A stretch of 64,000 bases of DNA from Planctomycetota bacterium (GCA_038060895.1 JBBTCT010000022.1:229301-293300); one strand, 5' to 3'. Counted from the first letter of the stretch, positions 19,274-45,721 are shown. Notes: generated from the letters alone by a model not told the origin. A program made the numbers and translations.

Positions 19274-21091
19274 TTACTTCGCTCCCAACGTCCTCGCCCG
19301 AACAAGGTAAACCCAGACCTCCCGCCCCTTCGCCCCGTTCCTTGTGACCGCCGAGGCCACGAACGCTCTCCCGTCCTGCAGATGCGCGTCGCATCCCAGC
19401 GACACGACCTCGCAGGTCGGCGTCTGCACGGCGCCCCCTGTCTCGGACTCGGTCTCCAGTGCCTCCGCCATCGAGGCTTCGGCCAGACCCGACTGAAGCT
19501 TCACCTGCAGCCGTCCCTCGGTGGCCTGGAGGACGCCGGCGTGGAGAAGGAAGCCGTCGTTCAGCGAATCGATGACGGGATCCCAGGCCTTGGCGCCCCA
19601 GGCGATTTCCACGTCGTGCTCCGCGACGAAATCGGCGTGGCGGCCGCGAAGCGAATGGAAAGGACTCCCGGTGCGGCCGAGCGCGGACGACTGGGCGACG
19701 AGGCGCGCGGTCCCTTTCTGCACGAGCCCGAGGATGTCGCCGAAAAGCGCGTCGGGGAGCCCGCCCGCCCGCTCCAGGACGTCGCGGCGGGCGAGCCACT
19801 CGGACTCGGGGAACGCGAGAAGCCACGACTCGGCCGCGAGGTTCGCGCCAAGGCGCAACTCCAGGTCGGTCAGCGTGCGCCGGATCTTGTCCTGCACTTC
19901 CGGCGGCGCGTGCACGACGAGGTCGTCGCCGATGATGGCGTAGCGGCAGCCGTCTTCGCTCCAGGTTTCTTCGCCGGTGCCGGCCTTGATCCGCTCGTCC
20001 AGTTCGTCGAGGTCCAGGCAGGTCGGATCGGGACCCGGGCCACATCGGATTCCCCCTCCGTTCTCGGGCGGATCGTTCAGCCCCAGATGGGGGGGCCTGC
20101 GATCGAACCAGGGGAGGCGCAGCAGAGCGCCGATGCTGTAGGCACGGAAGACCTCCGCGTTTCCCGCCCGCTCGGCGACGGCGTCGGAAGCGCCCTCGAC
20201 GCGTGCGCGCAGGAGGACGGCCGTGGTCCAGCCCGGAGTGAAGGGGCGGTAATCGGTCGCAGCGAGGAGGAGGGTCCGGCCCGGCTGAAGCGCGACGTAG
20301 GTGCGGATTTCCGTGGAATCCATGCGCGGAAGTTCGAGGCGTCCGCCGGACGCCGCCGGGAGTTTGAAATCGGCCAGCTCGGCCAGGCGCGCGGTCTGGA
20401 TCAGGAGCTCGAGGTGCAACAGGTCCTCGCCCGCCGAAAAATGCGGCCGCATCTCCAGGACCGCACCTTCCTGAAGTTCGTCCATGATCGGGTCGGCGAT
20501 CGCAGACTGCTGCGCAATCTCGATGTCGAAATCTCTCACATAGGTCTTCCGCCGGAGCGACGACGCAACCGCGTAGCGCCCCCCGCCCCCGCGGGCGACC
20601 AGCCGGTGCGCCACCCGGCCGCGCGCCTTGTCAGCCGCCGCGGCCCGAAGCCCCGCCGCCGCCGCTTCGTCCAGCAATCCCGGCGCAAGCCCGTCCGCAA
20701 CCCCGGGCGCCAATTCCACCATCTCCATCTCCACCACGATCGTCCGCGCCGCCCGCTTTTCGAGCAGCTCGAGCGCTGCGGCAATCGACTGAAGCACTTC
20801 CGGCCCCGCCGTCACGCGCAGCGTCCCGTTGGCGTACTCGAGCGTGTCCACGCCGCTGTCCCACGCGCCGGCATTCACGGTCTGGCCGAGGAGAAGCGCG
20901 ATGCTGTCTCCGGTGCCCTCCGTCTCGGGGGCCGCGCCCACCGGGGGCTCGTAAACGACAAAGCCGATCCGCGGCCCGCGCTTTTCGGGACGAGGGTCCG
21001 TCAGGGAGCGCAGATCCCACGTGCGGCGCTCCTGCGCGGAAGCGGCCGTTGCGAAGGCGAGGACGGCGAGGATGGCGATTGAGACCCGCAT
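19274..21091 (-). CDS. secreted hypothetical protein, paralog B of tandem pair (internal two-fold repeat)
   Basis: Real start MRVSIAILAVLAFATAASA inside the longer track ORF; start overlaps upstream stop as TGATG. Confidence 0.55.
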   Translation of the reverse strand: MRVSIAILAVLAFATAASAQERRTWDLRSLTDPRPEKRGPRIGFVVYEPPVGAAPETEGTGDSIALLLGQTVNAGAWDSGVDTLEYANGTLRVTAGPEVLQSIAAALELLEKRAARTIVVEMEMVELAPGVADGLAPGLLDEAAAAGLRAAAADKARGRVAHRLVARGGGGRYAVASSLRRKTYVRDFDIEIAQQSAIADPIMDELQEGAVLEMRPHFSAGEDLLHLELLIQTARLAELADFKLPAASGGRLELPRMDSTEIRTYVALQPGRTLLLAATDYRPFTPGWTTAVLLRARVEGASDAVAERAGNAEVFRAYSIGALLRLPWFDRRPPHLGLNDPPENGGGIRCGPGPDPTCLDLDELDERIKAGTGEETWSEDGCRYAIIGDDLVVHAPPEVQDKIRRTLTDLELRLGANLAAESWLLAFPESEWLARRDVLERAGGLPDALFGDILGLVQKGTARLVAQSSALGRTGSPFHSLRGRHADFVAEHDVEIAWGAKAWDPVIDSLNDGFLLHAGVLQATEGRLQVKLQSGLAEASMAEALETESETGGAVQTPTCEVVSLGCDAHLQDGRAFVASAVTRNGAKGREVWVYLVRARTLGAK

Positions 21092-22899
21092 CAGCGCACC
21101 TCCGGAAAGCGGACCCGGATGAGGAGAAGGAGCGTTTCGGCGGGGCCTTCGCGTCGCGCCTCCGTCACCGCCGTCCACTCGCCGGCCTTGACGGTCGAGT
21201 CCGTCCGGATTTCGAGCAGGTCGATCGTGGTCCGGTGGATGTCGCCGCCGTGCTCCGCCCCGGTTCCAAATGCTGCGATTTCCGAACGCCACCCGAACTG
21301 GCCCTGGAGTTCCACCCGCGCGCGCCCGCCAGCGTCGGCCGCAAAGGGCCTCACGTCAAGCAGGAGCCCTTCGCGCAGGACGTCGTTGACCGGGTCCGTC
21401 GCCGCCGCTTCCTGCGCAATCTCGACGTCGCGGTCGCGCACGAAGAGCGACTCGGCGCCCGCGAACGCGTGGACGCGCTGGCCGGTGAGCCCGAGAGCCG
21501 TCGCGCCTGCGACCACGCGCGCACGGTCGCCCTTGCGCGCCGCCGCGAGAACGTCCGCCGCCGGGAGGTCGCCGCGCTCCCTGCCCTCGAGGGCCACCAC
21601 GACCGCGTCCACCGCGACCCGCTTCAGCCGGAGTTCGGCCATTCCCTTGAGCGCCGCTTCCGTCGCTTCCAGGATCCCCTGCGGTGCGACGGCCATGATG
21701 CGGTCGTGCCTGAAGCGCAGTTCGCGGCCTTCCACCGACCAGGCGTCCTCCCCGCCGGCCGACTGGCGGAGCAGCGCCCCGAGAGTGTCGTCGTCGAGCC
21801 CGGGATTGCGCGGGTCTTCGATGAAGATGACGCCGCCCTGCTGTTCGTCCCAGTCCGAGAGGTCCAGCCGCTGCCCGGGGAAATCCGTCACGTTCCATTG
21901 GAGGGTGCCGGCCTCGAGGAAGCGCATCTTGAGATCGTCGAGGCCCGCCGCGAGATCGCCGAGGGGCTCTTCGACGCGCTTGGCGCGGACCAGCGCCACG
22001 AGCGTCCAGCCGTTCTCGATGCCTTCGACGCCGCCGGGGACGAGCAGGACGGTGCGCCCCGAAGGGCACGGCCACGTCCCGGCCGCGAACCAGGCCGCGC
22101 GCGAGGGGAGCTGGATCTTTCCCTCGGGTTTCGCCTTCGCGTCGAATTCGAGCACCGTGCCCGGGCGGGCGCACTGGAAGCGGTACTCCAGGAGGACCGT
22201 CGCGCCGTCGGGGGCGAGCACCGGCCGCACGTCGAGCACGGTCCCATCCAGCACTTTCTGCACGAACGGGTCGGCGACCGTGGCCGCCTGCGCAATTTCG
22301 ATGTCGTAGTCCACCACCAGTTGCCGCTCGCGCACGTCGGCCGCGTGAAACCGAAGCCCCGGCGCGCCGCCCGATCGCAGCACCGCCACTGTCCGCCCGC
22401 GCGTCCCGCCCGCCGCCGCTTCCCGCAACGACTGCTCCTGCGCATCCGTCACGACGCCCGCTTCGAGCCCGGCCGTTTCAAGCACCCCCGGCGCCAGCAG
22501 CATGACCTCCGCATCCACCACCACCCGGCGCGCGCCGATCCGCGCGAGCACGTTCAGGGCCGCGACGATCTTCTCCTGGGCCTGCTTCGTCTGCTTGACC
22601 GTCATCCACCCGTCGCCGGCGATGTCGAGCGACGCGTCCCCCGCTTCCCACGACTCCGGCTCGACCATCCGCTGGATCGCCCAGGTCAGCGTCTCGGCGT
22701 CGAAGGCGGCCACTTCCTCGTACTCCTCGCCGTTCTCAACGGCCGAAGTATCCGGAATGGTTTTCAGGCTCAGCCTCGGTCCCGGCTTCGAACTGCCCGT
22801 AGCCCGGAGCGCGCGGACGTCGTGCGTGCGCGTCACAAAGCCAGAGTCCTCGGCCCAGGCAAGTCCCGCGGCGAGGAAGAGGACGGCGATCGGTCGCAT
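21091..22899 (-). CDS. secreted hypothetical protein, paralog A of tandem pair (internal two-fold repeat)
   Basis: Signal peptide MRPIAVLFLAAGLAWA; shares D(Y/F)DIEIAQ ... DP ... VRP module with paralog B. Confidence 0.55.
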   Translation of the reverse strand: MRPIAVLFLAAGLAWAEDSGFVTRTHDVRALRATGSSKPGPRLSLKTIPDTSAVENGEEYEEVAAFDAETLTWAIQRMVEPESWEAGDASLDIAGDGWMTVKQTKQAQEKIVAALNVLARIGARRVVVDAEVMLLAPGVLETAGLEAGVVTDAQEQSLREAAAGGTRGRTVAVLRSGGAPGLRFHAADVRERQLVVDYDIEIAQAATVADPFVQKVLDGTVLDVRPVLAPDGATVLLEYRFQCARPGTVLEFDAKAKPEGKIQLPSRAAWFAAGTWPCPSGRTVLLVPGGVEGIENGWTLVALVRAKRVEEPLGDLAAGLDDLKMRFLEAGTLQWNVTDFPGQRLDLSDWDEQQGGVIFIEDPRNPGLDDDTLGALLRQSAGGEDAWSVEGRELRFRHDRIMAVAPQGILEATEAALKGMAELRLKRVAVDAVVVALEGRERGDLPAADVLAAARKGDRARVVAGATALGLTGQRVHAFAGAESLFVRDRDVEIAQEAAATDPVNDVLREGLLLDVRPFAADAGGRARVELQGQFGWRSEIAAFGTGAEHGGDIHRTTIDLLEIRTDSTVKAGEWTAVTEARREGPAETLLLLIRVRFPEVR

Positions 22900-23229
22900 G
22901 AAGCGGTCTCCCGGGTGAATTGGCAGGGCGTCCCCCGGTGCATGAGACGGCCCGACGGGGGTGCGGGTCAAGCGCATTTCTGAAGTTCTGGGCTGGCATG
23001 GGCCGGCATGAGCTGGCGTTGGCTTAGTTCAGCAGGAAGACCAAGACCCGTACAGAGGGTGGGCTGAAACGCCAGTGACTCGGGGCCGGCCAGGGGACTA
23101 TACTCTGGTCGGGGGAGATTTTTCCGAGTGGACCGCTGCTTTGCGCTGAGATCGCTGGTGCGGGAGGGAGAAGTAATGAGCGACCTGCTCTGCGTTGGAC
23201 TTTCGAAACGCTCCGCCCCCTCTCGTGTG

Positions 23230-23364: not shown

Positions 23365-24924
23365 TTGCCTGGTGCCTACGAGAGGAAATCGCCCATGGAA
23401 CGATTTGAGGCCGCACGTCGCGCACGCGCAGTTCTGCAAAATCTGGTCATCGCGGCGGCTCCGGCTGGTCAAATCCTGAATGCCACGCTTCGCGAGTGCC
23501 TCCTCCTGACTGGGGCGCGAACCGCGCTCTTCATTGGCGCCGCCGAGGTCCCAGAGCACCTTCGAAGCGTTCCCATGACCTTCGATGGACCGGGAAAGTG
23601 GCCGCCGCTTTCACCGAAACTGCTCGAAACGGTCATGCGTACGGCGAAGCCCTGGGTTCCCGTGGCAACGCCCGCGGATGGAAATGGCACTCCACCCCAC
23701 GTCTCCGAAGTGCTGTGCCTGGGCGATCGTTTCATGGGGGTCGCAGGGTTCATGCCCTGCTCGTTGGAAACTCTCGGTGAAGCGGGGCGTGAACTGCTCA
23801 CAGAGCTCCTACAGTCCATCGCCGAAGCTCTCTCCGCGGCCGTGTACCAGACGGCAATCGCCCGATTGGAGTCGGACCTGCGGCTTGCGAGAGTTGGCAA
23901 TGCCCTCACGCCGCTACCTCTCGTCGGCGGACCGACGAAGCTGCAGTCAAAGCGGCTGGTCGGCAATTCATCCCAGATGCGCGATTTGGACGGACGGATC
24001 GATCGTGCAGCCGCCACCGATGCAACGGTCCTGATCCAGGGGGAAACAGGAACGGGGAAGGAACTTGTCGCCCAGGAAATTCACGCCCGTTCGCCGCGGC
24101 GGCGGGGCCCGTTCGTCGATCAGCACATGGGAGCCTTGCCCGACGACCTGATCGAAGCGGTCATCATGGGGTACGTCAAGGACATCCACTCGCAAGCCCA
24201 CAAAGACAAGCCCGGCCAGTTCGAGCTAGCCGACAAGGGCACCTACTTCATGGACGAGGTCGGGCTGACCACCCTGATCGTGCAGGAGAAATTTCTGCGT
24301 GTTCTCCAGGAGCGAAAGGTCCGCCGCATCGGGTCGGAAGTGTCGTTCGATTTCGACACGCGCATCATTGCGGCGAGCAATCGCGATCTGCAGGAACTCG
24401 TCCGTGAAGGAAAAATGCGTGAGGACTTTTTCTACCGGCTCAAGGTCGTGACCATTCCCATCCCCCCGCTGCGTCACCATCTCGAGGACTTGCCGGCACT
24501 GTTCGAGTATTTCACCGAGCGCCTCGCCTGCAAGTGGAGCCTGCCCGCGCTTCGCGACCACAAATTCGATTCCGCCTGGGCCGCTCTCCTCGGGGGATGG
24601 TCGTGGCCCGGAAACGTTCGGGAACTTGAAAACACCGTTGAGGAGGTCGTAACGAATTCGGGAGGCGCGCCAAAGCTCGAGGAACTGGAAAAGATCATGG
24701 ACGCGAAGCGGAATGCGGCCGGGATCGAGGAGGCAGCGTCCGGCGAGCGGATTTCGCACGCCAAGCGGATGGAGAATGCCGAAGCGAACTTCCTGCGAAG
24801 CGACCTGCGCGAGAGCAACGGCAGCGTCCGCAAGGCGGCAGAGAAGAACGGCCTCTCGGAGCCGACCATGCGAAGGAAGGCAACCCGGTATCACCTCTCG
24901 ACTTCGTCAGGCGCTCAGAAATGA
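23365..24924 (+). CDS. GAF-domain AAA+ bacterial enhancer-binding-protein-type regulator (sigma-54-activator family, GAFTGA motif absent) with Fis-type HTH
   Basis: Walker A GETGTGKE, Walker B GTYFMDEVG, R-finger region, C-terminal HTH; GAFTGA replaced by KDIHSQAHKDKPG. Confidence 0.8.
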   Translation: MPGAYERKSPMERFEAARRARAVLQNLVIAAAPAGQILNATLRECLLLTGARTALFIGAAEVPEHLRSVPMTFDGPGKWPPLSPKLLETVMRTAKPWVPVATPADGNGTPPHVSEVLCLGDRFMGVAGFMPCSLETLGEAGRELLTELLQSIAEALSAAVYQTAIARLESDLRLARVGNALTPLPLVGGPTKLQSKRLVGNSSQMRDLDGRIDRAAATDATVLIQGETGTGKELVAQEIHARSPRRRGPFVDQHMGALPDDLIEAVIMGYVKDIHSQAHKDKPGQFELADKGTYFMDEVGLTTLIVQEKFLRVLQERKVRRIGSEVSFDFDTRIIAASNRDLQELVREGKMREDFFYRLKVVTIPIPPLRHHLEDLPALFEYFTERLACKWSLPALRDHKFDSAWAALLGGWSWPGNVRELENTVEEVVTNSGGAPKLEELEKIMDAKRNAAGIEEAASGERISHAKRMENAEANFLRSDLRESNGSVRKAAEKNGLSEPTMRRKATRYHLSTSSGAQK

Positions 24925-25109
24925 CGAAGCGCCGCTCATCTTTGACGAAACGCACTTCGTAAGTCGAAGCCCTGTGGTGCGCGAAACTTGTGTCGCGTGC
25001 CGCACCGGCCGGTTCCGTTGAATTCGTCAAGAGTGAGCGAGTGCCGGATCCTTTTCCGGATCCCGCCCCGGGGAATGTGAGTGGCCCGCGGCTTGCGATA
25101 AAGATTCGC

Positions 25110-25637
25110 ATGGGAGCCTGCTGCGGCGGATGCGATGAGGGCGCGAGTTGCGCTGGCAAACAGCCTGCGGCGGTTTTGCTGCCTCCGGACCTGATCATCC
25201 CGGGACCCGACCCGGATCGCACGGGAGTGCTTGAGCTGGAAGAAGTTCCGGATGAGACGACGAGCGATGAATCGGTCCCGCTGATCACGAAGTCGCTCGG
25301 CCCCACCCGGCCAGTCGCACTTAACACCCGTCTCGTCCTCACGGACGGCGGAACGACTGTCAGCGAAGCGCTGCACGTCCGGGGTTGCAACTCGGGTAGC
25401 GTCGACCTTGTCGTCTTCCTTCTGAATTCGATCTCGACCATAGACGCGGTCCTGGAGGGCGGAATCGACGGAGAAAACTACCGCCGGATTTCCTCGACGC
25501 GATTCAGCGCAGCCGGGTTTGCGAGGTTCCGATTTCGCCGGGTGGGTTACCGCTTTCTCCGAGTGTATTACAGCGCTTCCGGCTCGGCCGGTGGCGTCGC
25601 TGTCCTGACCACAACGATCAACGGTTCATCCAACTGA
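25110..25637 (+). CDS. hypothetical protein, Cys-rich N-terminus (MGACCGGCDEGASCAG); C-terminal beta-rich domain paralogous to the next gene
   Basis: Alternative upstream start at 24990; shares the IDG(E/Q)N(Y/W)R block with 25657-25980. Confidence 0.4.
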   Translation: MGACCGGCDEGASCAGKQPAAVLLPPDLIIPGPDPDRTGVLELEEVPDETTSDESVPLITKSLGPTRPVALNTRLVLTDGGTTVSEALHVRGCNSGSVDLVVFLLNSISTIDAVLEGGIDGENYRRISSTRFSAAGFARFRFRRVGYRFLRVYYSASGSAGGVAVLTTTINGSSN

Positions 25638-25656
25638 CCCCCAAAGGAGGACGTTC

Positions 25657-25980
25657 ATGGCCTATGCCAAGCTCTTTACAAACTTGTCCGTCGTCAACGG
25701 AGTTTCGCAGTACTCGCAACCGTTCAGTATGGCGGGGAACAACGCGTTCCGGTTCGGAGTGACGGTCTTCAGCAACTCCGCGACGAGTCTGACCTGTACG
25801 CCCCAAGGTTCCATCGACGGACAAAACTGGCGGGACCTCACCGCCGCAACCGGGCTCGTCGTCGGGTGGGCCTCGTTCACGCAAGGGAGCATCACCGACC
25901 TGATGGTGAGACTCGTCTGCACGGTCGTAGGAACCGGGACGATCGTCCTGGCCGCTGATGTGTACACGAGCCAGCAGTAG
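25657..25980 (+). CDS. small beta-rich hypothetical protein
   Basis: Strong RBS AAGGAGG 7 nt upstream of ATG. Confidence 0.6.
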   Translation: MAYAKLFTNLSVVNGVSQYSQPFSMAGNNAFRFGVTVFSNSATSLTCTPQGSIDGQNWRDLTAATGLVVGWASFTQGSITDLMVRLVCTVVGTGTIVLAADVYTSQQ

Positions 25981-26100
25981 GAACACGAAGAGTCGGAGCA
26001 GTCGCAACCCTCGGACCAGTCGGGGCGGAGGAGAGCCGTCGTCCGGCTCTCTTCCGTCCGGCTTCCGAAATAAAAACATCGTCGTTACAAAGAGGTCGAA

Positions 26101-26667
26101 ATGCCCGAACTTCCGCTGACCTACGTCTACGAGCCGCCGAACTGGCTTGCGCGCGCGAACGCCTACGGCTCCTGCGTCGGCGGCCGGAGATTCTCCGTCG
26201 CGCATCAGACACCCGGGACGACCGTGACGGGGCAGACCTCCTTCGTGGCCACGACTCCCACGTTCCTGATCAACCAGGCGAGCGCCGCGCACCGCGTCGT
26301 GCTCTCGAACTTCGCGCTCTGCCAGATCGGGACGCCCGCGGGAGGGACGATCCACGTGGCGCTGGCGATCGACTCGTCGGATCGATACTCCTCAGGAGGG
26401 ACGTCGATCACCCCGCAGGCGACCGCGATGCCCAGTGCGCTCACCGCGGGCTTCAGTTTCCGGTTCAACCCGACCGCCGCCGCCGCCAGCGCCGTCCGGA
26501 TCCTGAACGAGTGGACCCAGCCCGCGTGGGCCGGTTCGATTTTCAATCCCGACCTGCATGACGGCGTCCTGATCGGATACACGGGTTCGATTCTGATCTA
26601 TACGTGGGCGGCCACGACGGCGCCGACGTGGATCATCGGCGGCTTCGACGTCCTGGAGGACGAGTAG
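26101..26667 (+). CDS. hypothetical protein (Thr/Ser/Ala-rich, beta-rich)
   Basis: RBS AAGAGG upstream; abuts the next gene. Confidence 0.55.
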   Translation: MPELPLTYVYEPPNWLARANAYGSCVGGRRFSVAHQTPGTTVTGQTSFVATTPTFLINQASAAHRVVLSNFALCQIGTPAGGTIHVALAIDSSDRYSSGGTSITPQATAMPSALTAGFSFRFNPTAAAASAVRILNEWTQPAWAGSIFNPDLHDGVLIGYTGSILIYTWAATTAPTWIIGGFDVLEDE

Positions 26668-26668
26668 G

Positions 26669-27553
26669 ATGCCGACGATCCGAGACCTGAGCCAGGGCGG
26701 CGTCCAGCCTCACGCCTCGACGCACATGTCGGGAGGTTCCGACGCGATCAAGCTCGACGAGCTCGCCGCGCCTACGGACGTCACGACGCTGAATGTCTCC
26801 ACTTCGGCTCACGGGCTGACGCCGAAGCTCCCGAACGATGCGACCAAATACCTCGACGGGACTGGCGCGTTCAGCGTCCCTGCGGGAAGCGGCGGCTCCG
26901 GCTCGTACCTCGGGACCACCGTGAAGACTTCCGGCACGACGTTCACGACCGGAGCCTCCACCAACACGATCCGTGTACGCCTTCAGGCCGGCGGCGGTGG
27001 AGGCGGCGGCGCTGCGTCGAATCTATTCAGCCCCGCCGGCGGCGGTGGCGCGGGCGGATACGCGGAAAAGACATTCGCCGTGAGCCCCTCGACCGCCTAC
27101 ACCTGCGCGATCGGCGCCGCAGGAGCCGGGGGCTCGGCAGGAAACAACAACGGCTCGGCCGGAGGGAACTCCACTTTCGCAGTCGGCGGAACGACCGTCA
27201 CAGCTTTCGGCGGCAATGGCGGAATCGGAACTGCCGGCGGAAGCGGCTCATCCGCGATCTTCGTTCTGGGGGGCGCTGCCGCATCCGTCTCCACGAGCGC
27301 CGACCTGAACGCAAGCGGCTCGCCGGGAGGGTTCGGGACAGGAAGTGGCGGCATTGGTGGTAGCGGCGCCTCGGGAGCCGGAGGTTCGTGCCTCTTCGGC
27401 GCCGGCGGAAACAGCCTCAATACCCAGAGCGGCGGCGCCGCGGGCGTCGGTTACGGCGCGGGCGGAAGCGGCGGCTGTTCGCTTTCCAGCGGCGGAAACG
27501 TTGCCGGCGGCGCAGGACTCGCCGGGGTGATCGTCGTCGAGGAGTTCTCGTAG
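26669..27553 (+). CDS. Gly-rich protein with phage tail-fibre-like N-terminal motif
   Basis: N-term HASTHMSGGSDAIKLDEL ... HGLTPKLPNDATKYLDGTGAF, then long GGxGG repeats as in phage minor tail/tail-fibre proteins. Confidence 0.55.
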   Translation: MPTIRDLSQGGVQPHASTHMSGGSDAIKLDELAAPTDVTTLNVSTSAHGLTPKLPNDATKYLDGTGAFSVPAGSGGSGSYLGTTVKTSGTTFTTGASTNTIRVRLQAGGGGGGGAASNLFSPAGGGGAGGYAEKTFAVSPSTAYTCAIGAAGAGGSAGNNNGSAGGNSTFAVGGTTVTAFGGNGGIGTAGGSGSSAIFVLGGAAASVSTSADLNASGSPGGFGTGSGGIGGSGASGAGGSCLFGAGGNSLNTQSGGAAGVGYGAGGSGGCSLSSGGNVAGGAGLAGVIVVEEFS

Positions 27554-27574
27554 CAAGATCGAGGAGATGAAGTC

Positions 27575-28015
27575 GTGAGCGGAAACGGCTGTTCCTTCTG
27601 GGCCCAGAACGTCTCCCCGGAGACGAGCTGGCCGATTTCCTCCGAAGCGCCGGCGGGGATGGACGGAATGTCCTGGTCGAGCGAGTGCGTCTGGGACGCG
27701 ATGTCCTTCCCGCAGGGAGTCCTGCAGGTCTCCGCGCCCGTCGAGATCCGGAACCCAAACAACACCGTGATCTTCTCCATCGTGATCATCGGCCAGAGCA
27801 GCGGGTCTCCTCAGCTCGCCATCGTATTCTCCGGCGCCAATTGTCCGGAGGGTCCCTACACCACGCTGAGCGGGCCGACCAACATCACGACCTTGGGCCT
27901 GCAGTTCCTAGGCGCCGTGACCGGAATCAGGTTCCCCTACGTCCGGGCAGAAGTCATGTCGTCGAACGGGAGTGCGGTGGCGGGGAGCGGGTGCTTTTGT
28001 GTCTCGGAAGCCTAA
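27575..28015 (+). CDS. hypothetical protein (Cys-containing, beta-rich)
   Basis: GTG start after GAGGAG RBS. Confidence 0.45.
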   Translation: MSGNGCSFWAQNVSPETSWPISSEAPAGMDGMSWSSECVWDAMSFPQGVLQVSAPVEIRNPNNTVIFSIVIIGQSSGSPQLAIVFSGANCPEGPYTTLSGPTNITTLGLQFLGAVTGIRFPYVRAEVMSSNGSAVAGSGCFCVSEA

Positions 28016-28173
28016 AGCCAGCGTTCGCTCGACAAACCAACCGTCCAAAGCGCCATCGGTGTAGCACATAACGAGAAGAGGTTTCGCGCGACTGTCTCTC
28101 ATCAAAGTCAAGTCAGAGCTCTCCAGCGCCTGACGGGTCTTCGAGTCGATTTTCCCTAGAGAAGGAGGTACCG

Positions 28174-28656
28174 ATGCCAGATCCAGAGATTGTGTCAATT
28201 GACGAAATCTTGCGTGCTAATGAGCTAAGGGATCCGCTGACCGGGGTCAGAACCGGCGGCACCGTGCTACACCCTGGCACTGGCGTGAAACTTCGGAAAG
28301 ATCGGCCTTCAGGATCCATTGGAATCAACTTGGACACAGGTCAATTGGAGATGCATGACTGGGGGCCGACCGTTGCTGGGCCCAGTACTGATTTCTCAAA
28401 GTTACCTGAACGAATCCGACTCTTTGGGGGAGAAACTGGCGACGGGCCCAGGGTGGGTCGTGACCCAAAGGAGTCTGAGGACCGTGGCGTGGAGATGCTG
28501 CTTCCGGAAGGCGTGAGAAAATTCGTCGCAGGAGATGCGCTGAAGGCAGGTATTGTCTCCATTTCCTTCGAGTTCGGAGGACCTTGGGGCCTTACCGTCA
28601 CGTTTGGAAGGCCGCCTGAGCCGGCTGGGGTCAGACGGAAGGACCTGGAGAAGTGA
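28174..28656 (+). CDS. hypothetical protein
   Basis: Strong RBS AAGGAGG 5 nt before ATG; lower-GC DNA. Confidence 0.55.
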   Translation: MPDPEIVSIDEILRANELRDPLTGVRTGGTVLHPGTGVKLRKDRPSGSIGINLDTGQLEMHDWGPTVAGPSTDFSKLPERIRLFGGETGDGPRVGRDPKESEDRGVEMLLPEGVRKFVAGDALKAGIVSISFEFGGPWGLTVTFGRPPEPAGVRRKDLEK

Positions 28657-28760
28657 CGCAATGCGAAACACGATCCATTTCTCGAAGTCGAGGACTGTCT
28701 GGGATGGGATGACTTCCCAGGAGCTAACCGCGCCTCCGTCGAAATCTCAGGAGCACGTCA

Positions 28761-29909
28761 ATGCGAACAGAAGCTTCTAGCGAACTGACTCATTCGTCAA
28801 GGTGGTGTCATCCAGTTACATTTGCACTTGCCTTGTTTCTTGGATGCGCCGCGGGTCAGGGCACCAACGAATCGAAGCCAGAAGAACCCAGGATTCACAA
28901 TTCGGTGGAATTGAGGGACTCGCAAGGGAGGATCCGGCTCTCGATCTGTCTGGATCAAGATGAGTGTCCTCAAATCATGCTATTTGATCCCGCCGGACAC
29001 CCTCGCTCGCGAATTGGACTAAGTTCGGAATTCGAACCCGTAATTCGTATGACGGGTTCGAACGGCGAGGATGCGGTTTCGCTTGGTTTGCGCGAGGATT
29101 CCCCCCAACTCCGGCTGGAGTGTGGCGAGGGACGAAGTGGTATTCGGATCCAGGCTGAAGCAACGCGAGGACCGGAGTTGACGTTGTCGGATGGCGATGG
29201 TTTGGAGCGCGCCCGACTGGCAATTGATCGTGGCGCCCCACAACTTTCGATGTTGGACCCTGGACTCAAGCCTCGCCTGTACCTTGGAACCGAGGTCTCG
29301 ACACCGGATAATTACGGACTCCGCGTCACCTCAGACGACGGCCTTTCCCGCGCGGAGGTTGGCACGACAAAAAACTCGCCGGCGTTCATCCTCGTTTCTG
29401 GAGGCGCTGGCGAATGGTCAGCGCTTGCAATGAGCCGTGGCGGGCACCCGCTGCTAAGCTTTGTCGATTCGACCGACATCGAACGAATTCGAGTCAGCTT
29501 GACGCCTCAACAGGAGTCCGAAGTAGCGCTTTGTAGCGCCGAAGGTCAGATTTCCGTTCTGGCAAGATGTCCGAAGTCGGGTTTCGGGTTGGTCAACTTG
29601 TCCGATGGCGATTCACCGACAGCCGTGTTTCTGGGGAAAGGTTCGTCCGGTGATGTCTTGGCCGGGATCGTTGATGCGGCGGGGTGTAGACGAGCGAGCT
29701 TGTCGCTAACCCCGGAGGACCGAGCTTACGCCTCCGTACAGGATTCGACCGCCTCCTCAGCCTTTCTGACGAACGATGGCAAAGGACTTTGCAAACTCGA
29801 GCTGAATCGAAAGGGAAAGACCAGACTGCTCGCGGGTTTTGACAAGACTGATACAGCATCCTTCATGTCGCTTGATTCGGAGGAAATCGAAACTTGGCGA
29901 TCAAAGTAG
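28761..29909 (+). CDS. repeat-containing lipoprotein
   Basis: Lipobox ALFLGCAAG; about eight roughly 24-aa repeats of the form P-x-L-x-L-x-D-x-G. Confidence 0.55.
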   Translation: MRTEASSELTHSSRWCHPVTFALALFLGCAAGQGTNESKPEEPRIHNSVELRDSQGRIRLSICLDQDECPQIMLFDPAGHPRSRIGLSSEFEPVIRMTGSNGEDAVSLGLREDSPQLRLECGEGRSGIRIQAEATRGPELTLSDGDGLERARLAIDRGAPQLSMLDPGLKPRLYLGTEVSTPDNYGLRVTSDDGLSRAEVGTTKNSPAFILVSGGAGEWSALAMSRGGHPLLSFVDSTDIERIRVSLTPQQESEVALCSAEGQISVLARCPKSGFGLVNLSDGDSPTAVFLGKGSSGDVLAGIVDAAGCRRASLSLTPEDRAYASVQDSTASSAFLTNDGKGLCKLELNRKGKTRLLAGFDKTDTASFMSLDSEEIETWRSK

Positions 29910-30203: not shown

Positions 30204-30725
30204 ATGGACGCAACGAAACCGGAAGTCGCCGCTCCAGCACCGCCCGCGCCGCTGGCCGACCCGCGCGTGGACAAGCTCCTTGAAAAGATCGGGATCCTTG
30301 AGCAGCTTTTCGTGAAGCGCATCAAGGACGACCAGGCGCACGCGGCGGCGTACAACACGCTGTACCAGGACATGTCGAAGTACCGGGACGACGCGTTCCG
30401 GGGGGCGCAGAAGTCGCTTCTCAAGGGTCTAGTGCTCATTTACGACACGATGAAGCGGTCCATTTCGGGGATCGGGGACGGGACGGTGCGCGAGATGGTG
30501 AACCTGCACGTCGAGGAACTGCTCGAGCTGCTTCATCGCCACGACGTCGAGCGGATGCCGGACACGCTGGGAAAATTCGACCGGAACGTGCAGCAGGCGC
30601 TGGGGACGGAGCCGGCGGCGACGGCGGAAGAAGATCAGACTGTTGCGCGAGTGGTGCGTGACGGGTTCAAATGGGGGACTCAGGTGTTGAGGCCGCAGGA
30701 AGTAGTGATTAAGGTAAAAAAGTAG
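30204..30725 (+). CDS. grpE: nucleotide exchange factor GrpE
   Basis: C-terminal VVRDGFKWGTQVLRPQEVVIKV matches the GrpE beta-domain. Confidence 0.8.
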   Translation: MDATKPEVAAPAPPAPLADPRVDKLLEKIGILEQLFVKRIKDDQAHAAAYNTLYQDMSKYRDDAFRGAQKSLLKGLVLIYDTMKRSISGIGDGTVREMVNLHVEELLELLHRHDVERMPDTLGKFDRNVQQALGTEPAATAEEDQTVARVVRDGFKWGTQVLRPQEVVIKVKK

Positions 30726-30765
30726 TAGGGAGCAGGGGGTAGTGGGTAGTTGGTAGGAAAGGCAA
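30721..30765. repeat. GGGGGTAG(T/G)GGGTAG-type intergenic repeat
   Basis: agggggtagtgggtagttggtagg; related copy in inverted arrangement at 34621-34680. Confidence 0.5.
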
Positions 30766-30788
30766 AGACTCTTAACAGGAGACCGTCC

Positions 30789-32378
30789 ATGGCCGACCAG
30801 AAGACGCCGATGACGTGCGGGATTGACCTGGGCACGACGAACAGCGCCATCGCGTTCATCGACGAGCACGGCAAGGCGCAGGTGATCCAGAACACGGACA
30901 ACGAGCGGATCACGCCCTCGGTCGTGCTGTTCGAGGAGAAGGAAGTCATCGTCGGCAAGATCGCCAAGAACTCGGCGGTGGCAGCGCCGGACCGGGTAGT
31001 GCAGTTCGTGAAGCGGCACATCGGCGAAGAGGGCTGGGTGAAGACGTACTTCGGGACGGAGTACACGCCCGAGACGATCAGCGCGCTGATCCTGAAGCGC
31101 ATCGTGCAGGACGCCGAGAAGGTGAGCGGCGGCAAAGTTGGGAGCGTGGTGATCACGGTTCCGGCGTACTTCAACGAAGTCGAGCGCAAGGCGACGCAGG
31201 ACGCGGGGACGATCGCGGGCCTGAACGTCGTCTCCATCCTCAATGAGCCGACGGCCGCGGCGCTGGCTTACGGGCTGGACCGGCTGGGCGAGAAGAAGCG
31301 CGTCCTGGTCTACGACCTGGGCGGCGGGACGTTCGACGTGACGATCATCGAGATCGACGGCACGAAGATCGACGTGCTGGCGACGGACGGCGAGCGGCGG
31401 CTGGGCGGCATCGACTGGGACGACGAGATCATCAACATGGTCTCCGAGAAGTTCCAGGCGGAGCACGGGATCGACCCGCGCAACGACCTCGAAGCGTGCC
31501 AGGACCTGCGCAACAAGGCGGAAGACGCGAAGATCAGCCTGTCGAAGCTCGAAAAGGTGCGCATCCTCTGCCAGTGCCAGGGCAAGACGACCAAGGTCGA
31601 ACTGACGCGCGAAGATTTCGAGAAGATCACCAAGGGCCTGCTCGACCAGACCGAGACGTACCTCGGGGTCGTGCTCCAGAAGGCGAAGCTCGCCTGGAAG
31701 GACATCGGCACCGTCCTGCTCGTCGGCGGCATGACCCGCATGCCCGCCGTGCAGGGCATGATCCAGCGTGTCACGGGTCTTAAACCCGAAACCGGCATCA
31801 ACCCCGACGAATGCGTCGCGATGGGCGCCGCCTACTACAACGCCGTCCTCGCCCTCCAGGCCAAGCCGTCCGAGGAGCCCGAGCTGGCGCTTCAGGGCGA
31901 AGCGCTGAAGGAGTCGATCGACGAGGAAGTCATGATCCTGCTGCAGGGCGTCGAGGTCACGAACGTGAACTCGCACTCGCTGGGCATCGTGGGCATCCAC
32001 AAGAAGACCGGCAAGCTGGTCGCGTACAAGATGATCCCGAAGAACACGCCGATCCCGGCCGACATCACAAAGCCGTTCGGGACGGAGAAGGAAAACCAGG
32101 TCAGCGTGCAGATCAAGATCGTCGAGGGCGAAGGCGAGACCCCCGAGGATTGCACGGAGATCGGGATGTGCGAGATCAAGGACCTCCCGAAGGGCCACCC
32201 CGCGGGCTCGATCATCGACGTGACCTACTCGTACAGCGTCGACGGCCGACTGCAAGTCACAGGCAAGGACCGCCTGTCCGGCAAGGAGGCCAGGGTCGAG
32301 ATCGTCCGCGCGAGCGGTATGGATGACAAAGAGATCAAGGAGGCGAAGAAGGACGTGGTTGAGATGGAAGTAGGCTAA
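30789..32378 (+). CDS. Hsp70-family chaperone, short form (no C-terminal lid/EEVD)
   Basis: GIDLGTTNS, DLGGGTFD, VLLVGGMTRMP motifs; about 530 aa. Confidence 0.85.
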   Translation: MADQKTPMTCGIDLGTTNSAIAFIDEHGKAQVIQNTDNERITPSVVLFEEKEVIVGKIAKNSAVAAPDRVVQFVKRHIGEEGWVKTYFGTEYTPETISALILKRIVQDAEKVSGGKVGSVVITVPAYFNEVERKATQDAGTIAGLNVVSILNEPTAAALAYGLDRLGEKKRVLVYDLGGGTFDVTIIEIDGTKIDVLATDGERRLGGIDWDDEIINMVSEKFQAEHGIDPRNDLEACQDLRNKAEDAKISLSKLEKVRILCQCQGKTTKVELTREDFEKITKGLLDQTETYLGVVLQKAKLAWKDIGTVLLVGGMTRMPAVQGMIQRVTGLKPETGINPDECVAMGAAYYNAVLALQAKPSEEPELALQGEALKESIDEEVMILLQGVEVTNVNSHSLGIVGIHKKTGKLVAYKMIPKNTPIPADITKPFGTEKENQVSVQIKIVEGEGETPEDCTEIGMCEIKDLPKGHPAGSIIDVTYSYSVDGRLQVTGKDRLSGKEARVEIVRASGMDDKEIKEAKKDVVEMEVG

Positions 32379-32379
32379 G

Positions 32380-32556
32380 GACAGGCTGGCATAGGCTGGC
32401 GGAGGCTGCGGAGGCTGGCGGAGGCTTTGGCGCAAAGGGAGGCAACCCCCTATGAGTAAGCGCCGACGCAATCGCCAGCCCCGATTCAGCCGACGCCTTT
32501 AGCCTTCGCCAGCCTCCGCCAGCCTCTGCCAGCCTCCGCCAGCCTCTTCACTACCC
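32380..32556. repeat. inverted tandem arrays of GGCGGAGGCT(G) repeat (long hairpin potential)
   Basis: Left arm aggctggcggaggctgcggaggctggcggaggct; right arm its reverse complement agcctccgccagcctctgccagcctccgccagcctc. Confidence 0.65.
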
Positions 32557-33771
32557 ATGCCTGAAAACCGCTTCCACGAACTTCTGGGCCTCCCAGAAGA
32601 GGTCTCCGACCCGGACTATTACCAGCTCCTGGGCGTGCCACGCTCCGAGAATGACGCCGCCGCAATCGAGGCGTGCTTCAAGGAGAAGATGACGCATGTC
32701 CAGCACATCGAGAACCCGCGCCACAAGGAGTTTCTCGAGTTTCTCAAGGGGGAGCTGAAGCGCGCCCGGTCGATCCTGACCGACGAAGAGCGGCGCGGCG
32801 AGTACGACCGCGAGCTGGCGGAGGAGCGCGGCGACGAGCTTCGGAAGGTGCTGTCGCACATGCTCGTGGACGGGACGCTGAGCTCGATCGCCGAGGTGTC
32901 GGTCTTCCGCGAGGGTCACAATCTCGGGCTGAGCGGCGAGTTCGTGAAGCAGGTCGTGGACGAGGAGTTGAAGAAGGCGGGGGCGCGCCGCGTCTCGGTC
33001 GCGACGGGGACCAACGGGCACCAGACGCAGGTCCTCATGAACCAGAAGGCGCAGGAAGTCGCGCGCCAGATGCAGGAAGCCCGCATGGCGGCGCGCATCG
33101 CCGACACGCGCGCGAAGATCGCGGAGACGCACCAGAAGAAGGCCGAGGAGCAGGTGCAGGTCGTGCTGCAGAAGGCCCGCGTGGCCGAGGTCCAGAAGAA
33201 GCAGGCCGTCGAACTGGCGCAGGAAACCCGCGAACGCGCGCGGCAGGCCGAGATCCACAAGATGCGCGCCGAACAGAAGGTCCAGGCCGTCACGCAGAAG
33301 GCCCGCGAAGCCGAGACGCTCGCGCGCAAGGCGATTACCCGTGAGCACCTCGCCGCCGCCCGCCACAAGATGTCCGAACAGGAACGCAAGCAGCTCGAAG
33401 CCGGCATGAAGGAGGCGGAGACCCGCTTCCAGGCCTACGTCGAAGCCTCCAACGAAGAACTTGAGTCGGTCCGTGAGAAAGGCATGGCAGGGCGGCGCCT
33501 CACGATGTGCTACGCCCTCCTCAGCATGTCGCTCGTCGCCGGCGCCGCGCTGCCTAAATACGTGCCGGGCGCCGCTTCCGCCATCACGAAACTGCTCGAA
33601 CCCTATGTCTCCAGGGTCAGCGGCATTCCGCACGCGGCCCTGCCGCTCATCGCCATCGCAATCCTGCTCCCGACGCTTCATTGGCTGGCAGGGACGCGGG
33701 CCACCGGGTTCTTCGCGCCGCTGCTGGTTATCCTCGCGCTGGCCGTCGCGGCGGGCGTGCTGCGGGGATAG
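32557..33771 (+). CDS. membrane-anchored J-domain-like protein (HPD motif absent) with long coiled coil
   Basis: N-term DYYQLLGVPRSENDAAAIEACFKEKMTHVQH resembles a J domain but lacks HPD; C-terminal TM helices. Confidence 0.6.
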   Translation: MPENRFHELLGLPEEVSDPDYYQLLGVPRSENDAAAIEACFKEKMTHVQHIENPRHKEFLEFLKGELKRARSILTDEERRGEYDRELAEERGDELRKVLSHMLVDGTLSSIAEVSVFREGHNLGLSGEFVKQVVDEELKKAGARRVSVATGTNGHQTQVLMNQKAQEVARQMQEARMAARIADTRAKIAETHQKKAEEQVQVVLQKARVAEVQKKQAVELAQETRERARQAEIHKMRAEQKVQAVTQKAREAETLARKAITREHLAAARHKMSEQERKQLEAGMKEAETRFQAYVEASNEELESVREKGMAGRRLTMCYALLSMSLVAGAALPKYVPGAASAITKLLEPYVSRVSGIPHAALPLIAIAILLPTLHWLAGTRATGFFAPLLVILALAVAAGVLRG

Positions 33772-44175: not shown

Positions 44176-44215
44176 AGAAAAACCCTCGGTCGTTGGCCGA
44201 GGGTGTACGTCGGTT

Positions 44216-44307
44216 GGAGAGGTGTCCGAGTGGCTTATGGTGCTGGTTTCCAAAACCAGTGAACGGTGGTGACACACCGTCCGAGGGTTCGACTCCCTCC
44301 CTCTCCG
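44216..44307 (+). tRNA. class-II tRNA, Ser-like body (acceptor GGAGAGG, G73) with anticodon CCA (reads UGG)
   Basis: Hand-folded: acceptor GGAGAGG/CCTCTCC, anticodon stem CTGGT/ACCAG, loop TTCCAAA, 23-nt variable arm with 6-bp stem ACGGTG/CACCGT, T-arm GAGGG-TTCGACT-CCCTC. Confidence 0.6.
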
Positions 44308-44325
44308 TTTTGCTGTTCTGAGGCT

Positions 44326-44420
44326 GGCCGGGTGGCGGAACTGGTTTACGCGCCCGACTTGGAATCGGGTGGTTGTCTCTTGACGGGGGCACCATGCGGG
44401 TTCGAATCCCGTCCCGGTCA
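44326..44420 (+). tRNA. class-II tRNA, Leu-like body (D-arm GGCGGAACTGGTTTACGCG, A73) with anticodon UGG (reads CCN)
   Basis: Acceptor GGCCGGG/CCCGGTC, anticodon stem CCCGA/TCGGG, loop CTTGGAA, long variable arm, T-arm GCGGG-TTCGAAT-CCCGT. Confidence 0.55.
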
Positions 44421-44541
44421 GTCTCATTTTTGAAAGATCGAAGCGCCTTTGCGAAGTGCTTGAGGCTGGCGCGTGTCAAAAGAATACAACAAGACTGGGT
44501 GCGTGTCAACTTGCGAAATTGACGCACCGCGCCAACTCTGA

Positions 44542-45495: not shown

Positions 45496-45721
45496 GGGCG
45501 TCTCCTTTGAGTACGCCTAAAAGATACTAGATCATGCTTGTTTTGTCAAGTGCATAATCCCGATTTCAAGCTTAACATTATGATATTAAATAAGTTATGA
45601 CACATTGTCTGCAACGGTTCATTCGGCACGTGCGTTGCAATTCAATCTTGACGCGACCTGATCAACGAACGGTTGCGGCCTTCACTTCCCAAACAACAAC
45701 TCACCGATCGGAGAACGACCC

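Follow-up and report, generated by a model that had tools for sequence, protein, structure and literature searches.

Gene transfer agents (GTAs), tailocins, injection systems and encapsulins are domesticated phage parts and rank among the major tools of bacteria. Other described systems compare with single components of the locus considered here: the tail fibre gp24 of cyanophage Pam3 and the Gly-rich adhesins of the S16 gp38 type (PF21722) are the nearest known systems for its fibre-like protein, the cement protein of Bordetella phage BPP-1 (3J4U_H) and the Carin1 decoration protein (8CJZ_B) for its small jelly rolls, as are the endospore appendage (Ena) proteins of Bacillus (DUF3992) with their BclA-type tip fibrils, and the bacterial enhancer-binding proteins of the NtrC, PspF and NorR class for its regulator. 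The locus lies in a stretch of 64,000 nucleotides from a Planctomycetota bacterium (GCA_038060895.1 JBBTCT010000022.1:229301-293300, one strand), hereafter the window, in which the gene of a sigma-54-type AAA+ activator is followed by seven open reading frames (ORFs) of the same direction, P2 to P8, listed here from the window sequence:

23365-24924, plus strand: gene of the sigma-54-type AAA+ activator; its start is likely the ATG at 23395 (public gene call on the identical contig, 509 aa)
25082-25097, plus strand: candidate sigma-54 promoter TGGCCCGCGGCTTGCG (-24 GG, -12 GC), with the GC 14 nt ahead of the P2 ATG
25110-25637, plus strand: P2, 175 aa, Cys-rich arm and small jelly roll
25657-25980, plus strand: P3, 107 aa, small jelly roll
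26101-26667, plus strand: P4, 188 aa, larger jelly roll
26669-27553, plus strand: P5, 294 aa, fibre-like protein with a Gly-rich tip
27575-28015, plus strand: P6, 146 aa, distant paralogue of P2 and P3
28174-28656, plus strand: P7, 160 aa, doubtful ORF
28761-29909, plus strand: P8, 382 aa, repeat lipoprotein

The co-directional run behind an AAA+ regulator, proposed in an earlier sequence-only reading, is thus present in the sequence. We regard it as a single operon from a family of domesticated phage structural cassettes that is confined to one lineage and highly duplicated there, its members being sigma-54-controlled and bearing an exchangeable binding tip, a reading that we hold with roughly even confidence. 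As in GTAs, tailocins and encapsulins, phage-derived structural genes occur here without replication or integration genes, under purifying selection and with a host-type regulator, and in sister loci HK97 capsid genes occur while neither a portal nor a terminase was recognised in the genes searched. The cassette differs from GTAs and tailocins in having no tail, sheath, tube, portal or terminase, from encapsulins in having no shell gene or cargo, and from all three in that a genome may hold up to about ten paralogues of it, every one equipped with a sigma-54 activator and an exchangeable tip gene. No description of such a cluster type was found in the literature searched. The same early reading had credited the seven ORFs with strong Shine-Dalgarno sites and with no recognisable family. 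The first point stands for P3 to P8, which have GGAG-type sites, and fails for P2, which has none; the second stands for P2, P3, P4, P6, P7 and P8, which pass no Pfam or NCBIfam threshold (marginal sub-threshold matches only) and match no PADLOC model, and fails for P5. Of these six, P3 alone matches the PHROGs, and weakly so (major tail protein, E 0.0029).

The family was delineated by scanning one genome per species, 185,579 species in all, with a profile of P4, the most conserved gene of the cassette (here and below, E-values of local hidden Markov model (HMM) searches refer to small databases). The scan reports 25 loci in six genomes only, all of them Planctomycetota metagenome-assembled genomes (MAGs), which carry 10, 5, 4, 3, 2 and 2 loci, at least 25 with further contigs; individual loci are designated L002 to L038 where they have to be told apart. 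According to HMM maps and gene calls, the order is almost everywhere the same: the activator, P2, P3 and P4 are followed by 1.5-3 kb of variable genes and then by two to five more jelly-roll paralogues, and in some loci the downstream stretch also holds glycosyltransferase-like and methyltransferase-like proteins (assigned by eye, no family hit) and a repeat lipoprotein. Compared with the closest locus, identity amounts to 88% for P4, 62% for P3 and 50% for P2. The ratio of nonsynonymous to synonymous substitution rates (dN/dS) is 0.13-0.17 for P4 (against five other loci), 0.22 for P3 and 0.31 for P2, the values of P3 and P2 being obtained with synonymous sites near saturation.

P5 starts with the tag MPTIRDLSQGG, continues with a head marked by the motif HxxxHxxGGSD, and ends in a Gly-rich tip domain. 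It passes the Pfam family Gly_rich_2 (PF21722; 28.9 bits against a cut-off of 24.3, residues 89-290), PHROG analysis reports hits with tail-fibre families (phrog_863, E 3.4e-29; phrog_6202, E 2.2e-14), and residues 103-294 align to the Pam3 fibre gp24 (PDB 7yfw and 7ypx), although this likeness to a solved fibre is weak (E 0.014). The resemblance to a phage tail fibre, suspected from the N-terminus of P5, is therefore upheld by the Pfam, PHROG and Pam3 gp24 matches. Pam3 gp24 is also of similar size (280-289 aa versus 294 aa), and it is its TNF-like and Gly-rich part that aligns; this fibre attaches to the particle by its N-terminus and recognises the host through its TNF-like and Gly-rich domains (PMC9608196). 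P5 differs from it in being accompanied by no baseplate, tail or Tfa-type chaperone gene and in its cassette-specific N-terminal tag and HxxxHxxGGSD head. A tblastn search of 50,697 phage records returned no match for full-length P5 or for its head (residues 1-74). The position occupied by P5 is a slot: in 25/25 loci, the ORF whose start lies only a few bases from the P4 stop opens with the tag MP[T/I/V][I/L/V][R/K], or with MAxVRS in the capsid-type loci described below, and the body behind the tag belongs to at least six unrelated types, three of which are recognisable as phage fibre tips:

HxxxHxxGGSD head fused to a Gly-rich tip, in this window, L014, L017 and L030
head alone, then separate genes including a tail-collar fibre (phrog_1800, E 3.9e-19)
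head fused to the T4 Gp10 C-terminal domain (Gp10_C, E 3.3e-22; tail PHROGs are matched too)
three further bodies, with no match

Receptor-binding modules of phages are characterised by just such a combination of a conserved docking end and distal domains that can be exchanged. The tag class and the P4 class switch together, which, with two classes in all, fits P4 as the partner of the tag.

P4 is modelled as an eight-stranded jelly roll (predicted local distance difference test, pLDDT, 90; 66-sequence alignment). Foldseek comparison with predicted viral structures reports 36 matches at E <=0.001, nearly all of them uncharacterised tailed-phage proteins, many of about 150-270 aa. Its sequence relatives number 134 in a large protein collection, with 229 cluster representatives at E <=0.001, and many are proteins of 260-1069 aa that carry the P4 domain at the extreme C-terminus behind long sequence repeats, which is the layout of a fibre shaft and knob. 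Five metagenome proteins of 474-1069 aa (P0128, P0139, P0133, P0125 and P0124) consist of long repeats (GLDNTGAAVLRPVEARNFDA...LIGLLTNSRL) ending in the P4 domain; they give essentially no Pfam or PHROG match, one of them having weak matches only, and probably represent fibres that end in a P4-type knob. In contigs of uncultured tailed phages, the stand-alone P4 homologue lies in the head module between the major head and the head-tail adaptor/neck genes (L008 and L009) or closes the structural module (L011 and L013). In the sister loci L012 and L035-L038, P4 directly follows a capsid gene. On a virus-like 60-kb metagenome contig with co-directional genes (L004/L005), a P4 homologue with a 90-aa N-terminal extension precedes three 260-aa paralogues, and two proteins of 299 and 365 aa, paralogous to each other and seemingly internally duplicated, lie upstream. 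Against the same 50,697 phage records, tblastn reports no match for P4 or for a phage P4 homologue, and searches of PDB sequences return nothing meaningful with the P4 profile and nothing with the capsid-type profile. A cysteine of the N-terminal arm, Cys25, is present in 20/20 cassettes of the window type and in 0/9 others (four capsid-type loci and five phage homologues). A role of P4 as a nucleic-acid-binding single-jelly-roll capsid protein was also considered and is rejected, the protein having no basic N-terminal arm and its domain occurring at the C-terminal end of fibres.

The small jelly rolls form a second family, and the families of P3 and P4 are unrelated at profile level. In P2, an N-terminal arm with four Cys (CCxxCx5C) is joined by the linker PPDLIIPGPDP to a small jelly roll at the C-terminus (residues about 61-175), and the model of the protein shows a disordered 60-residue N-terminal arm and a compact jelly roll with pLDDT above 93. 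The Cys cluster at its N-terminus, MGACCGGCDEGASCAG, had been noticed before and is real: homologues keep it at their extreme N-terminus as CCxxCxxGxxC[E/A/S]G, with PPDLIIPGPDP behind it. An MGxCC N-terminus acting as a eukaryote-type acylation signal is rejected, as Gly2 is not conserved. P3 is a single-domain copy of the P2 jelly roll with no conserved Cys, and the paralogy deduced earlier from the block IDG(E/Q)N(Y/W)R is confirmed by BLASTP between the C-terminal half of P2 and P3 (E 4e-7). P6 is a distant third paralogue, connected to P2 and P3 via intermediate sequences: the link reaches E 5e-7 with an iterated local HMM but only a marginal E 0.016 when the profiles are compared directly. 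It begins with MSGNGCS, P6-type proteins with M[S/G]G[N/P]GCS, and its homologues occupy the matching downstream position in many sister loci. The P2/P3 family is far narrower than that of P4 and counts 49 proteins, most of them unnamed metagenome proteins, the named sources being all Planctomycetota or Brocadiae MAGs; its alignment is too variable to serve as a query for a genome scan. Two weak IMG/VR matches of a P3-only scan, on a low-GC contig with no long ORF at that place, were judged to be chance hits of a discoidin-like motif.

The profile of this family reports weak matches with CBM32/discoidin (E 0.018) and with the Carin1 capsid decoration protein (E 0.024), and the fold of P2 and P3 resembles that of phage cement and decoration proteins, among other jelly rolls. 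The likeness to the BPP-1 cement protein and to Carin1 is at fold level only, and the jelly roll is a very common fold, which limits the weight of fold matches. The predicted folds are jelly rolls of the viral, TNF or lectin kind, in line with the jelly-roll and TNF-like folds that had been guessed at the outset. Two further explanations of the cassette were considered. If it encoded an adhesin or an appendage of the cell surface comparable to the Ena fibres of Bacillus, Cys-cross-linked jelly rolls would carry a knob-and-fibre tip and be anchored near the lipoprotein. Ena and its tip fibrils share with the cassette paralogous small jelly rolls devoid of signal peptides, Cys-bearing N-terminal arms and a TNF/C1q-like knob; Cys motifs are found at the N-terminus of P2, of P6 and of a 390-aa protein encoded in the capsid-type loci, and the glycosyltransferase-like, methyltransferase-like and lipoprotein genes of some sister clusters would suit a surface structure. 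We nevertheless consider this improbable. None of P2 to P6 carries an export signal, conserved Cys are missing from P3, which is conserved best among the small subunits, Pfam gives no match with DUF3992, and the four Cys within 11 residues of P2, in the pattern CCxxCx5C, suit a metal site equally well as disulfides; in addition, the genome here is that of a non-sporulating Planctomycetota bacterium. The proteins of the cluster had been described as secreted, which is not supported: a hydropathy scan and inspection of the N-termini find an export signal in P8 alone and no signal peptide in P2 to P7. Alternatively, the small jelly rolls may be likened to those of PBSX XepA, SPbeta YomS or PirA, making the cassette a toxin or lysis module with P5 as its targeting subunit. 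However, identity to these proteins is 7-11%, the fold is found in lectins, GOLD domains and capsid proteins as well, and a PirB-like partner, a holin, an endolysin and an immunity gene are all missing. PADLOC matches no known defence system here apart from the AAA+/HTH (helix-turn-helix) core of the regulator (RtcR-type models, without their CARF part), and a toxin module is accordingly very unlikely. Both the appendage and the toxin-like role are less likely than the decoration of a shell, on which the capsid-type sister loci bear.

In five loci (L035, L036, L037, L038 and L012), two tandem full-length major head proteins of the HK97 type, of about 311 aa, stand in place of P2 and P3. The tandem head-protein genes are located as follows:

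L035, 5086-6961: tandem head-protein genes
L036, 5009-6887: tandem head-protein genes
L037, 5107-6984: tandem head-protein genes
L038, 2752-4734: tandem head-protein genes
L012, 2-928: tandem head-protein genes

The assignment is given by phrog_212 (E 4.3e-31), with which local HMM results agree, and 198 phage records contain major head proteins that match them, the listed matches showing 98-99% query cover and about 30% identity. These loci have the same activator and promoter layout as the window type. Behind their P4 they encode an 80-aa tagged protein, a 129-aa protein and a tail-collar fibre, and further 3' the 390-aa protein mentioned above, which carries CGCx6-7CGC at its N-terminus, and a small lipoprotein with P8-like repeats. 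A capsid-type locus is present in 4/6 MAGs. The window itself contains no HK97-fold shell gene, as judged by local HMM search. The main rival to our reading starts from these loci: the cassette would be an accessory kit for an HK97 particle supplied by the capsid-type locus, with P2, P3 and P6 as cement and P4 and P5 as a head-fibre unit. Such particles would either lack DNA, in the way of encapsulins, or resemble GTAs, and the activator switched on at the time would determine their surface. The common layout (activator, two capsid genes, P4, tagged protein), the phage head-protein matches and the adjacency of P4 to capsid genes in phage contigs all speak for it. Yet P2 and P3 take the slot of the capsid genes and do not add to it, a P4 and a fibre are already part of the capsid-type locus, and there is no evident cargo. 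Pfam and PHROG analysis of the L036 cluster genes and of their upstream flank, which is an ABC transporter operon, recognises no portal, terminase, protease or scaffold. The accessory kit is in our view possible but unlikely. A related proposal is tentative and also rather unlikely: in a small Planctomycetota lineage, phage head-accessory and fibre genes would have become a multi-copy toolkit switched by sigma-54, in which an HK97 shell locus without a packaging machine and up to about ten sister cassettes with their own sensor-activators, offering alternative jelly-roll coats, a common P4 hub and exchangeable tips, together yield DNA-free fibre-bearing particles or lattices, the signal setting their binding specificity. 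If this were so, they would represent a new class of domesticated viral nanostructure, apart from GTAs, tailocins and encapsulins.

The regulator of the window contains an AAA+ sigma-54 interaction domain (Sigma54_activat, PF00158, E 6.7e-54, residues 198-364), followed in Pfam by AAA_lid_14 and a weak Fis-type HTH (HTH_8, HTH_50). It is thus alike to the bacterial enhancer-binding proteins in its AAA+ domain, lid and C-terminal HTH, and also in the candidate -24/-12-like element downstream of its gene. It differs from them in scoring below every NCBIfam equivalog cut-off and in its N-terminal domain of about 190 aa, which is uncharacterised and in which Pfam finds no receiver, GAF or PAS match. 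The candidate promoter TGGCCCGCGGCTTGCG is not significant by itself, as the window holds 6 matches of the -24/-12 type against 7.8 expected by chance. Among the sister loci, which are related to one another, 10/13 have a -24/-12-like site between the activator gene and the first structural gene, against an expectation of about 0.4 in the 4.9 kb examined (background 0.088 per kb per strand). The earlier proposal of a dedicated regulator over phage-related structural and fibre genes is supported. Palindromes sit upstream of the promoter; those of the window are short and unlike those of L006, and a direct repeat, CCGGATCC, lies at 25043-25066. In L006 (8230-8435), the palindrome GCGAACTTnnGTTCGC occurs three times, 80-265 bp upstream of the -24/-12 site, and would provide candidate binding sites for the activator. 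One or two small, apparently helical proteins are encoded between promoter and P2 in L002 (8210-8979), L006 (8570-8899) and L007 (8615-8990); there are none in the window. The best sigma-54-type match of the window, CGGCACGTGCGTTGCA at 45624-45639 with one mismatch, is unrelated to the cassette.

The 3' end of the cassette differs in composition from the remainder. The fall in GC content noted from about 28.0 kb is real, with 0.551 at 28-29 kb and 0.574 at 29-30 kb versus 0.658 over the window, and it is restricted to P7 and P8: GC content at third codon positions (GC3) is 0.565 for P7 and 0.564 for P8, 0.77-0.88 for P3 to P6, and 0.81-0.92 for the flanking genes. P7, within this low-GC3 segment, is preceded by a strong Shine-Dalgarno site, GAAGGAGG, but the public gene calls on the identical contig omit it and none of the sister loci has a homologue, which makes it doubtful as a gene. 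P8 possesses a lipobox (LFLGC), and the repeat lipoprotein recognised earlier is real, except that its beta-hairpin repeats of roughly 20 residues number about 13-15 and not about eight. A homologue is found at the 3' end of the sister cluster L021 (12683-13381, E 2e-27), and a weak similarity exists with a lipoprotein of L002 (15405-16415, E 0.008). In both loci the terminal lipoprotein gene has a lower GC3 than P4 (0.549 versus 0.883 in L021, 0.570 versus 0.915 in L002), and the lipoprotein gene of L036 (11672-12172) has a GC3 of 0.695 versus 0.834. Since the low value recurs, several paralogous cassettes have the GC drop at their 3' end; it is a family trait of the terminal lipoprotein gene and not a one-off insertion.

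These data also bear on the suggestion that the cluster was horizontally acquired or is a remnant, and on the simplest version of it, a decaying fragment of prophage or tailocin tail fibre that came to lie beside a regulator by chance. Such a fragment would explain why P5 and several slot proteins are phage fibre-tip domains and why part of the region is lower in GC. However, GC3 of P3 to P6 is host-like, only P7 and P8 are atypical, and their low GC3 recurs in sister clusters, which speaks against horizontal acquisition of the cluster. Purifying selection on the core genes and the recurrence of the order in at least 25 loci, together with separate activators and candidate -24/-12 promoters, exclude a decaying remnant. 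Other phage modules are also missing: Pfam, PHROG and NCBIfam scans recognise no portal, terminase, sheath, tube, baseplate or integrase among the eight cluster proteins, and Pfam and PHROG scans of the cluster and the window region find neither a tail nor a baseplate gene, nor one resembling Tfa. Around the cluster, no nearby tRNA gene and no flanking or att repeat was found, nor any significant direct or inverted repeat or terminator bounding the region, and there is no Rfam match. With no tRNA, integrase, flanking repeat or Rfam element, the region bears no mark of a mobile island, and the view that it is not an ordinary prophage, expressed before, agrees with all of these searches. The chance fragment is essentially excluded.

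Returning to a domesticated cassette with an exchangeable tip, we can propose how its products may work together. The N-terminal domain of the activator would sense a signal, upon which sigma-54 RNA polymerase would transcribe the operon. The proteins that have no export signal would assemble in the cytoplasm, as phage parts do, with P2, P3 and P6 forming a platform or lattice on which P4 oligomers would hold the N-terminal tag of the fibre, while the variable distal domain would bind a target, probably a surface glycan. The Cys-rich arms of P2 and P6 and the type-specific Cys25 of P4 may tie the subunits together through a shared metal site or through disulfides, and a repeat lipoprotein, P8 in the window, closes some cassettes. 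Different cassettes of one genome, each under its own activator, would then give rise to assemblies with different binding tips.

Several observations weigh against this reading. The GAFTGA loop is the part of an activator that contacts sigma-54, and in the window activator it is replaced by KDIHSQA; the L030 activator has a similar variant, KGMHSTA, the shared form being K[D/G][I/M]HS[Q/T]A, whereas the majority of sister activators have GAFTGA, GSFTGA, GAFSGA or GGFSGA. The candidate promoter, if real, would yield an almost leaderless P2 mRNA, because the site lies so close to the P2 ATG and P2 has no Shine-Dalgarno site. The loci that give the promoter sites and the Cys25 correlation are not independent, and no clean probability can be attached to the promoter count. 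All relatives are MAG or metagenome sequences. Profile comparison shows P4 to be unlike the capsid-adjacent proteins of isolated phages with related capsid proteins; hhalign reports no similarity between the P4 profile and the proteins beside the related capsid genes of Rhizobium phage RHph_Y2_11 and Pseudomonas phage PaMx28. Lastly, the window contains no shell, release or lysis gene, which leaves a cytoplasmic assembly with no evident route to its target.

If the proposal is nonetheless correct, the family would add to the domesticated phage tools a type made from head-accessory jelly rolls and fibre tips instead of tails. Its unusual traits are the massive paralogous expansion per genome, the presence of a sigma-54 activator for each cassette, and a receptor-binding slot swapped behind a docking tag. 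At about 4-5 kb, the cassette is a small and defined gene set in which the docking of phage fibre modules onto a hub can be studied. When it is considered alongside the capsid-type loci, the loss of packaging machinery from HK97 shells is a further question that it touches, and it points to undescribed cell biology in uncultured Planctomycetota.

On the minus strand, two paralogues of about 630-670 aa (19274-21292 and 21091-22977) with signal peptides, repeated internal motifs and no Pfam match are divergent from the activator gene, and this pair is absent beside sister cassettes. Directly downstream, at 30204-33771, lies an operon encoding GrpE, an Hsp70 (542 aa) and a J-domain membrane protein, which is likewise not found beside sister cassettes. 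Farther along the window, neighbouring tRNA-Trp and tRNA-Pro genes are called at 44215-44421 with unusual lengths (94 and 97 nt, respectively), and this pair sits in a second lower-GC stretch, at 43-46 kb, with a GC content of 0.58-0.59.

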